This document shows, piece after piece, positions 49,551 through 50,901 of a stretch of 64,000 nucleotides of DNA. Position 1 is the stretch's first letter; each line of letters starts with the position of its first letter. The DNA is taken from the NCBI RefSeq assembly GCF_056712565.1, contig NZ_CM160072.1; one strand, 5' to 3'. Position numbers and translations under genes: made by a program. The notes beneath the pieces are model-generated. The model saw only the letters and a list, made by a program, of their open reading frames with translations. It was not told the DNA's origin and searched no databases.

Positions 49551-50797
49551 TGAAGTGGCACACTGAATTTGGCCACCTGAACAGAGGTGATATGCTCACC
49601 TCAGAACAACACAGGTGCTCCAATGAAAAAAAGAAATTTCAGCGCAGAGTTTAAACGCGAATCCGCTCAACTGGTTGTTGACCAGAAATACACGGTGGCA
49701 GATGCCGCGAAAGCTATGGATGTTGGCCTTTCCACAATGACAAGATGGGTCAAACAACTGCGTGATGAGCGTCAGGGCAAAACACCAAAAGCCTCTCCGA
49801 TAACACCAGAACAAATCGAAATACGTAAGCTGAGGAAAAAGCTACAACGCATTGAAATGGAGAATGAAATATTAAAAAGGCTACCGCGCTCTTGATGTCA
49901 GACTCCCTGAACAGTTCTCGATAATCGGGAAACTCAGAGCGCATTATCCTGTGGTCACACTCTGCCATGTGTTCGGGGTTCATCGCAGCAGCTACAGATA
50001 CTGGAAAAACCGTCCTGAAAAACCAGACGGCAGACGGGCTGTATTACGCAGTCAGGTACTTGAGCTACATGGCATCAGCCACGGTTCGGCCGGAGCAAGA
50101 AGCATCGCCACAATGGCAACCCGGAGAGGCTACCAGATGGGACGCTGGCTTGCTGGCAGGCTCATGAAAGAGCTGGGGCTGGTCAGCTGTCAGCAGCCGA
50201 CTCACCGGTATAAACGTGGTGGTCATGAACATGTTGCTATCCCTAACTACCTTGAAAGGCAGTTCGCCGTGACCGAGCCAAATCAGGTGTGGTGCGGTGA
50301 TGTGACCTATATCTGGAGGGGTAAGCGCTGGGCGTACCTCGCCGTTGTTCTCGACCTGTTCGCAAGAAAACCAGTGGGCTGGGCCATGTCGTTCTCGCCG
50401 GACAGCAGGCTCACCATGAAAGCGCTGGAAATGGCATGGGAAACCCGTGGTAAGCCCGGCGGGGTGATGTTCCACAGCGATCAGGGCAGTCATTATACGA
50501 GCAGGCAGTTCCGGCAGTTATTGTGGCGATACCAGATCAGACAGAGTATGAGCCGGCGCGGAAACTGCAGGGATAACAGCCCAATGGAACGCTTCTTCAG
50601 GAGTCTGAAGAACGAATGGATGCCGGTGGTGGGTTACGTAAGCTTCAGCGAGGCAGCTCACGCCATAACGGACTATATCGTTGGATATTACAGCGCACTA
50701 AGACCGCACGAATATAACGGTGGGTTACCCCAAACGAATCGGAAAATCGATACTGGAAAAACTCTAACGCGGTGGCCAGTTTTTGTTGACCACTTCA
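49551..50797 (+). mobile_element. IS911 (IS3 family) copy 1, probably inactive
   Basis: left end tgaagtggcacactgaatttggccacctgaaca, right end ...ggccagtttttgttgaccacttca; slippery site reads A5G, and a 1-nt deletion near the orfB 3' end lets the ORF run past the IR. Confidence 0.85.
49623..49895 (+). CDS. insN: IS911 OrfA (C-terminus altered)
   Basis: [49 protein letters not shown]... Confidence 0.8.
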
Positions 50798-50901
50798 AGA
50801 GAAAAGAACCGATGAAGGTGGCCAGTACATTTTGTGTGGTGACGTCTTCAACAACTAAACGCGTAGCTCTGGGAGTCACATTAGTAGTGGCTGAACCGTA
50901 G
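49951..50901 (+). pseudogene. insO: IS911 OrfB transposase, frameshifted at the 3' end and read through into flanking DNA
   Basis: DDE transposase ORF; comparison with the second copy at 55116-55358 shows a 1-nt deletion that removes the native stop. Confidence 0.7.

Follow-up and report, generated by a model that had tools for sequence, protein, structure and literature searches.

The window analysed here is a stretch of 64,000 nucleotides of Escherichia coli DNA (contig NZ_CM160072.1 of RefSeq assembly GCF_056712565.1). Positions 49551-50797 of its plus strand are occupied by a copy of the insertion sequence (IS) IS911, termed copy 1 to distinguish it from a second, partial IS911-like element further along, copy 2. 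Copy 1 is 1247 bp long and has both ends, starting with TGAAGTGG and finishing with CCACTTCA; its opening letters are TGAAGTGGCACACTG and its closing letters GTTGACCACTTCA. In RefSeq, the Prokaryotic Genome Annotation Pipeline (PGAP) labels it an 'IS3-like element IS911 family transposase', a frameshifted pseudogene, and labels its neighbour a partial 'DUF2254 family protein'. Copy 1 is thus a known and already annotated pseudogene; what is added here is the exact list of its lesions and the order in which they arose.

Features of the IS911 copy

The features of copy 1, with the lesions placed among them, are the following.

49551-49586, plus strand: left inverted repeat (IRL), 36 bp, agreeing with the intact copies at 36 of 36 positions
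49623-49895, plus strand: orfA*, from ATG at 49623 to the stop TGA at 49893-49895; 90 amino acids, ending in EILKRLPRS
49873-49880, plus strand: degenerate frameshift site T AAA AAG G, with a run of five A at 49874-49878; the intact form is A AAA AAG
49879-50901, plus strand: orfB reading frame, which crosses the right inverted repeat into the flank and ends at TAG 50899-50901
50318, plus strand: C>G, giving T233R, six residues past the catalytic D227
50569, plus strand: T>A, giving W317R, six residues ahead of the catalytic E323
50728-50731, plus strand: run of four C (CCCC), where the intact copies have CCCCC and copy 2 has CCACC
50762-50797, plus strand: right inverted repeat (IRR), matching the published oligonucleotide IRRa at 35 of 36 positions (PMC2909936)

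Two intact 1249-bp IS911 elements, from plasmids of Shigella dysenteriae (record L003) and Salmonella enterica (record L004), have been used as references. Both are annotated as intact transposases and are bordered by direct repeats, the target duplications CTGG and AAC. Copy 2 was rejected as a reference, being truncated at its 5' end by IS600, ISEc52-like and itself frameshifted. A preliminary description of the locus had proposed alignment to intact IS911 as a check on its claims. The four-way alignment, together with the translations, is the basis of the lesion list, and relative to the S. dysenteriae element it reveals exactly two 1-nt deletions and seven substitutions in copy 1. The identity to the intact element is 99.4%, and many plasmid copies fall between 99.2 and 99.4%.

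Copy 1 has the hallmarks of an IS911 isoform: near-identity over its full length, both ends, and 36-bp terminal inverted repeats of the form TG...CA. The single mismatch in IRR falls at tip position 29, a site that is not conserved between IRL and IRR. When the translation is conceptually repaired, a transposase with a helix-turn-helix (HTH), a leucine zipper and a DDE catalytic domain is obtained (Pfam HTH_Tnp_1 and rve), in which the catalytic residues D227, D287 and E323 are all kept. A scan of 48500-56500 against Rfam gave no match at E <= 1.

The published length of IS911 is 1250 bp with an OrfAB of 382 residues, while the natural copies observed here are 1249 bp long and encode 389 residues. 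The gap arises because the laboratory reference, GGAAAAAACTC (A6), as seen in primer O5 (Table 1 of PMC2909936), holds one extra A where the natural copies compared (L003, L004 and window 50750-50765) have A5; the natural copies are not defective in this respect. It follows from the laboratory reference, too, that changes at the very C-terminus of OrfAB are tolerated.

The frameshift site and orfA

The IS911 transposase OrfAB arises by programmed -1 frameshifting, and one base pair inserted in the frameshift region fuses the two frames (PMC2909936). In an intact element, a -1 slip on A AAA AAG joins orfA in phase 0 to orfB in phase -1. The slippery region of copy 1 reads TTAAAAAGG, as against TTAAAAAAGG in the S. 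dysenteriae copy and TTAAAGAAGG in the Salmonella copy. Copy 1 has therefore gone from A6G to A5G, as the preliminary description had stated from the letters of the window. The codons at the site are now UUA AAA AGG. Owing to the missing A, the X XXY YYZ heptamer is lost, OrfA ends early, and orfB moves from the -1 to the +1 phase relative to orfA. Since a one-base insertion fuses the frames, a one-base deletion acts in the opposite direction.

The shortened product, OrfA*, has 84 native residues and an early end through RLPRS, so that it numbers 90 residues where intact OrfA has 100; the terminus EILKRLPRS given in the preliminary description is the correct one. The Pfam domain HTH_Tnp_1 is found in it with E = 1.7e-14, and at least 1000 contigs carry the exact 90-residue protein.

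On the evidence of the sequence, the deletion in the A run by itself closes the native route to transposase. The preliminary description went further and held that the OrfAB fusion cannot be made at all. This is true of the programmed -1 route but too absolute, since orfB now lies in the +1 phase and a +1 slip would remake OrfAB less one lysine; this route is weighed below.

A further variant of the site is found on the Salmonella plasmid p33822-1, whose IS911, otherwise intact and with a 3-bp duplication, has A AAG AAG at IS position 327 and is annotated as an intact transposase. The frameshifting efficiency of this site may differ from that of A AAA AAG.

Lesions in orfB

The second deletion lies near the 3' end of orfB, where the five C of the intact copies have become four. 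OrfB is altered from residue 371 on, its last 19 residues being rewritten, and the native TGA, which is sited inside the right inverted repeat, is bypassed, leaving copy 1 with no complete orfB that ends at its own stop. A 1-nt deletion removing the orfB stop had been described earlier by comparison with copy 2, and it holds against the intact copies as well.

The preliminary description did not mention that the catalytic core has undergone two non-conservative substitutions, T233R and W317R. The threonine at 233 is invariant in all five aligned IS3-family transposases, and at position 317 the remaining aligned members of the family have W, Y or H.

Distribution of the alleles and order of the lesions

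By megablast, at least 16 complete and independent E. coli genomes, from different laboratories, match the full 1351-bp stretch that ends with the orfB frame (49551-50901) at 100% identity. A5G is also present in K-12 MG1655, BL21 and KE47. In an evenly spaced sample read out with the alignment span as a proxy for the indel, 12 of 12 records bearing the locus are A5, while IS911 at other loci is A6. About 100 records carry the exact C4 allele, compared with 526 genomes that have the right junction; a sample of matches to the locus gave one C4 to five C5. Allele counts taken from identity bands on short queries are approximate, and the 757 records at >=99% for the A5G 61-mer include partial matches.

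Intermediate haplotypes allow the lesions to be ordered. KE47 and BL21 have A5G together with C5, T233 and W317. FCI23 has W317R and the flank single-nucleotide polymorphism (SNP) 51348 in common with the window, yet it retains C5 and T233; T233R is not found in KE47, BL21, ECO_1_S or FCI23. The most parsimonious order of lesions would accordingly be A5G, then W317R, then T233R and the C deletion, with A5G placed first because it is common to K-12, B and the window lineage. Such a series is the pattern expected of a gene that loses its function at the first step.

Among plasmid records covering the site (n = 1641), A5G occurs in two only. One is KE47, a chromosome filed as a plasmid, and the other is a copy from E. 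albertii, which is judged to be independent because it has many other indels and is without the copy-1 signature SNPs (IS positions 90C, 159G and 1221G). The distribution of A5G fits a copy that does not move, and the allele has not spread.

A decayed, non-autonomous element

Taken together, these observations indicate that copy 1 is very probably a fixed, decaying, non-autonomous IS911 in a KpLE2-type island of E. coli. With one A lost, the native -1 signal can yield no transposase, and translation in the zero frame can give only the truncated OrfA*. Once transposase was lost, orfB would have been free to drift in the window lineage, acquiring W317R and later T233R and the C deletion. The mobility left to the element would depend on OrfAB supplied in trans by an intact IS911, for which both inverted repeats are, as far as sequence goes, still usable. 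IS911 transposase is about 200-fold more effective in cis than in trans (PMC5009743).

The earlier conclusion of an immobile element is right in that no transposase can be made by the normal route, but it is too strong, as the ends are intact and the element could in principle be mobilised in trans. 'Non-autonomous' is the more accurate term for copy 1, because IRL matches the intact sequence at 36 of 36 positions and IRR at 35 of 36. Overall, the earlier interpretation is partly supported: it is right in its core, in that the frameshift site, the orfB stop and autonomous mobility have all been lost, and wrong in its account of the flanking genes.

Several observations weigh against decay of a fixed copy. 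Changes are more frequent in the IS than in its flank (3 in 1247 bp, as opposed to 1 in 2953 bp), but the excess is only suggestive and falls short of significance (Fisher p = 0.08). With an A6G-repaired query, A6G is found at the same chromosomal locus in exactly three genomes, ECO_1_S, FCI23 and FCI48. The ECO_1_S copy is a fully intact IS911, and that of FCI23 combines A6G with W317R. Since A6G is found at one locus on two different haplotype backgrounds (ECO_1_S and FCI23), the A run is mutable, and an allele with A5G only is one step from intact. The three A6G copies may have arisen by reversion or through short conversion tracts, or may be errors of assembly. Lastly, PGAP calls the A5G-only allele of BL21 an intact transposase with a 'programmed frameshift', although this is an automatic label.

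The record in question, BL21-RIPL (record L020, 724-1891), has a coding sequence spanning 1168 nt under WP_085948656.1, annotated 'IS911 family transposase, programmed frameshift'. RefSeq labels for the same A5G site are thus inconsistent, reading 'programmed frameshift' in BL21 and 'frameshifted' pseudogene in the window.

As a fixed copy in decay, copy 1 illustrates an insertion sequence dying in place, in which the frameshift signal goes first and the transposase gene erodes later. The case carries little biological weight; within the KpLE2 island, the series of alleles could be used as a minor marker of lineage.

Comparison with known IS911 loci and mutants

Copy 1 resembles intact IS911 (IS3 family, IS3 group) in its orfA/orfB layout, 36-bp inverted repeats and DDE residues, and differs from it by A5G, C4, T233R, W317R and the lack of a target-site duplication. 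It has a counterpart in the K-12 pseudogene insO, or 'IS911B' (b4623), in KpLE2, which has the same insertion site 15 nt past the yjhE stop, the same A5G and flanks that are 99.9% identical. The difference is that in K-12 the equivalent of window 49885-54236 is replaced by IS30D, which removes the rest of copy 1, the partial DUF2254 gene, the BCCT transporter gene and most of IS600. Because of this replacement, the K-12 pseudogene (three joined fragments, 7126-9802 of record L002) is a chimera of the 5' 334 bp of copy 1 (49551-49884) and the 3' 795 bp of copy 2, and its annotation joins pieces of two different elements. The KpLE2 island of E. coli B and RR1 holds an uninterrupted IS911 and a choline transporter gene, whereas in K-12 the IS911 is interrupted by IS30 (PMC5379014). 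The window is thus the undeleted form of the K-12 'IS911B' locus, as in E. coli B.

In CFT073 (record L010, 2314-2345), IS30 lies at the same IS911 position as in K-12 (record L002, 7435-7465), namely GGCTAC|TGTAGATTC, 6 nt 3' of the slippery run. The joint of IS30 with IS911 corresponds to window 49884/49885; the CFT073 copy is at another locus and is A6G. Many other E. coli IS911 fragments end at this same coordinate. The shared position suggests either a hot spot for IS30 or the spread of an IS911'::IS30 unit.

The engineered frameshift-site mutants of IS911 offer a parallel, in that a single-nucleotide change in the length of the A run decides the product (PMC2909936). The laboratory change was an insertion that gives constitutive OrfAB, while the natural deletion shuts off orfB by the -1 route.

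Flanks and junctions

The features that border copy 1 are these.

49287-49535, plus strand: yjhE remnant, the last 82 codons and native stop of a gene for a 414-residue major facilitator superfamily (MFS) transporter, the same as K-12 yjhE (b4282)
49548-49550, no strand: left flanking triplet GGC, not duplicated at the right end
50798-50800, no strand: right flanking triplet AGA, different from the left
50799-51137, minus strand: 5' 339 bp of a DUF2254 gene, a PGAP pseudogene (Pfam DUF2254, E = 6.6e-27)

Copy 1 has no 3-4-bp target-site duplication. The unequal triplets, GGC and AGA, were noted in the preliminary description and contrast with the CTGG and AAC repeats around the intact copies. 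The identification of the neighbours as yjhD and yjhE remnants fused to the IS does not stand: yjhD lies upstream of yjhE and has no contact with IS911, yjhE keeps its own stop, and the gene at the right end is a DUF2254 gene. In annotation, the left flank should be given as yjhE, intact at its 3' end, and the right flank as a DUF2254 gene that has been truncated.

The yjhE remnant shares about 95% identity with the 3' end of the gene that strain Esc13 has at full length (record L007, 3781-5025). Its stop lies 15 nt before the IS911 start and its truncation is at the 5' end, a position that makes the truncation unrelated to IS911. On the right, the DUF2254 gene is cut exactly at the IS end. 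Of 1278 bp, 339 are kept and the 3' 937-939 bp are gone, with no trace of them elsewhere in the window. Strains 219 and H14 have the gene intact at 1278 bp, with homology beginning at the last IS base. Because there is no target duplication and the flanks come from unrelated contexts, at least one of the two junctions must be secondary, the product of an IS-associated rearrangement and not of simple insertion.

Three routes fit the flanks: adjacent deletion, recombination between two IS911 elements, and targeted insertion beside a resident IS911-type end. The preliminary description named only the first; a rearrangement at one or both ends is upheld, and adjacent deletion is one candidate of the three. 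That the duplication is missing through homologous IS911-IS911 recombination or targeted insertion, and not through adjacent deletion, is a serious possibility, if a little short of an even chance. By either of these routes, the module made up of the partial DUF2254 gene, the BCCT gene and IS600 could have been carried into the island. The left junction coincides to the nucleotide with that of an island variant in which a full-length MFS gene is followed by a different IS911-family fragment (about 88% identical), and it occurs in 1438 of 5426 genomes, against only 526 for the right junction; a K-12-type deletion explains part of this excess. The DUF2254-BCCT(-IS600) module is found in unrelated contexts, IS600 is likewise without a duplication, and insertion of IS911 targeted next to an IS911 end is documented in work cited in PMC7986276. 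On the other side, no intermediate has been found, neither an IS911 with a matching duplication at either junction nor an empty site, and copy 1 reads as canonical IS911 from the first base on, with no visible mosaic.

The Esc13-type island (record L007, 4788-5367, and records L011-L018) holds the ancestor of yjhE, a full-length 414-residue MFS gene in a cluster with dihydrodipicolinate synthase (DHDPS), UxaA-family and PdxA-family genes. The 5' IS911-family fragment in that island is about 88% identical to copy 1, has the same start nucleotide, is cut inside the A run and has a frameshifted orfA. In a look-up of contigs by exact protein, no empty site was seen after the full-length MFS gene: each of the 8 distinct contexts holds an IS911-family fragment there. 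A simple 2.6-kb adjacent deletion, in which yjhE would be the 3' end of the MFS gene beside the intact DUF2254 gene of H14, has been considered and rejected (BLASTP E = 0.16).

Alternative readings of the A run and of OrfA*

The alternatives that concern the element itself give the A run or the truncated OrfA a function, or deny that the deletions are real. The first of these treats the A5/A6 run as a mutable on/off switch of a resident IS911, in which the widespread A5G-only allele, that of E. coli B/BL21 and KE47, would be a single slippage away from an intact element and would possibly leak some OrfAB by a +1 shift at AAA_AGG_C. We regard this as unlikely. If it were true, the A6G genomes ECO_1_S, FCI23 and FCI48 would be natural revertants, given that their reads are real, and the window copy would still be unrescued, having T233R, W317R and the C deletion.

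It is rather more doubtful that the 5' part of copy 1 has been kept because OrfA*, with its HTH and three leucine-zipper heptads, is a host-beneficial repressor acting in trans on incoming IS911-family elements, in which case the decay of orfB would be irrelevant. A role of OrfA in regulating the transposition of IS911 is known (PMC2909936). When compared with the S. dysenteriae copy, orfA has two changes, both synonymous, and orfB has T233R, W317R and S384A, but these counts are far too low for a test of selection. K-12 keeps its orfA part despite the IS30-associated deletion, and the protein is found on no fewer than 1000 contigs; this persistence would be explained equally well if the sequence had hitch-hiked in an island that is itself widespread. 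In addition, OrfA* is without the C-terminal 16 residues, the last heptad included, and the Esc13-type island fragment at the same site has a frameshift within orfA.

A reading of A5G as a recoding switch is very improbable. It would have ribosomes slip by +1 on AAA_AGG_C to give OrfAB less one lysine, so that elements with A5G only, as in BL21, would be weakly autonomous; a -1 slip at the site would remake the wild-type 100-residue OrfA. Even so, the later lesions would leave the window copy crippled. The frame arithmetic and the predicted product of 388 residues follow from the sequence. AGG is the rarest codon of E. coli, and the lysine codon AAA is shift-prone. The site has the same form as the +1 site of Ty1, CUU_AGG_C, and frameshifting at rare AGG codons is known in E. 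coli (PMC5009743). Like the Ty1 site, that of copy 1 places in the P site a codon able to re-pair in the +1 frame, follows it with the rare codon AGG in the A site, and reads GGC in +1. In copy 1, the orfB frame runs from GGC at 49879, although this agreement is one of pattern only. The organism and the tRNA pool are different, and the copy-1 site is conserved by inheritance alone, above a downstream open reading frame that is decaying and not conserved, as T233R, W317R and the frameshift in the window lineage attest.

In BL21 and KE47 orfB is otherwise intact, and PGAP joins both frames in BL21. Against the recoding switch, the A5G copies are found at one locus only and give no sign of transposition. 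The orfB of the window lineage has gathered non-conservative changes and a frameshift, as expected in the absence of selection. The stimulators native to IS911 are adapted to shifts of -1, and rare-codon frameshifting is small at low mRNA levels (PMC5009743). The +1 route to OrfAB at AAA_AGG_C is thus probably negligible.

Finally, the idea that the two 1-nt deletions are sequencing or assembly errors in an element that is truly intact, a caveat already raised in the preliminary description and suggested by their position in homopolymer runs (A6 and C5), typical error sites, and by the three assemblies with A6G at the locus, is refuted by the population data, in which A5G appears in MG1655, BL21, KE47 and all 12 sampled independent complete genomes, C4 recurs in about 100 records, T233R and W317R, which are not homopolymer artefacts, co-occur with C4, and the 1351-bp stretch recurs unchanged in at least 16 genomes, making the resequencing proposed earlier unnecessary.

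Neighbouring elements

Downstream of the DUF2254 remnant, the window holds a transporter gene and two further IS elements.

51200-53203, minus strand: BCCT-family (choline-type) transporter gene, in a module between the two IS911-like elements (PMC5379014)
53308-54571, minus strand: IS600, 1264 bp, which truncates copy 2 and has no target duplication (TGT and GGA)
54572-55366, plus strand: copy 2, a 795-bp 3' fragment, IS911/ISEc52-like, about 96% identical to copy 1, with a frameshift of its own and a degenerate right end

IS600 sits between the BCCT gene and copy 2. The joint of the BCCT gene with IS600 is common to strain 219, in which the other flank of IS600 is the lpxM/virK/capU region. 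The DUF2254-BCCT pair (50799-53203) is a portable module: in H14 it is cargo of a Rac-like prophage (record L006, 6062-9400) and about 94% identical, and in strain 219 it lies in a different island and is 99.3% identical.

Elsewhere in the window, an inverted repeat is formed by 10928-11050 and 21215-21337. Its arms are 123 nt long, 77% complementary and 10.2 kb apart.

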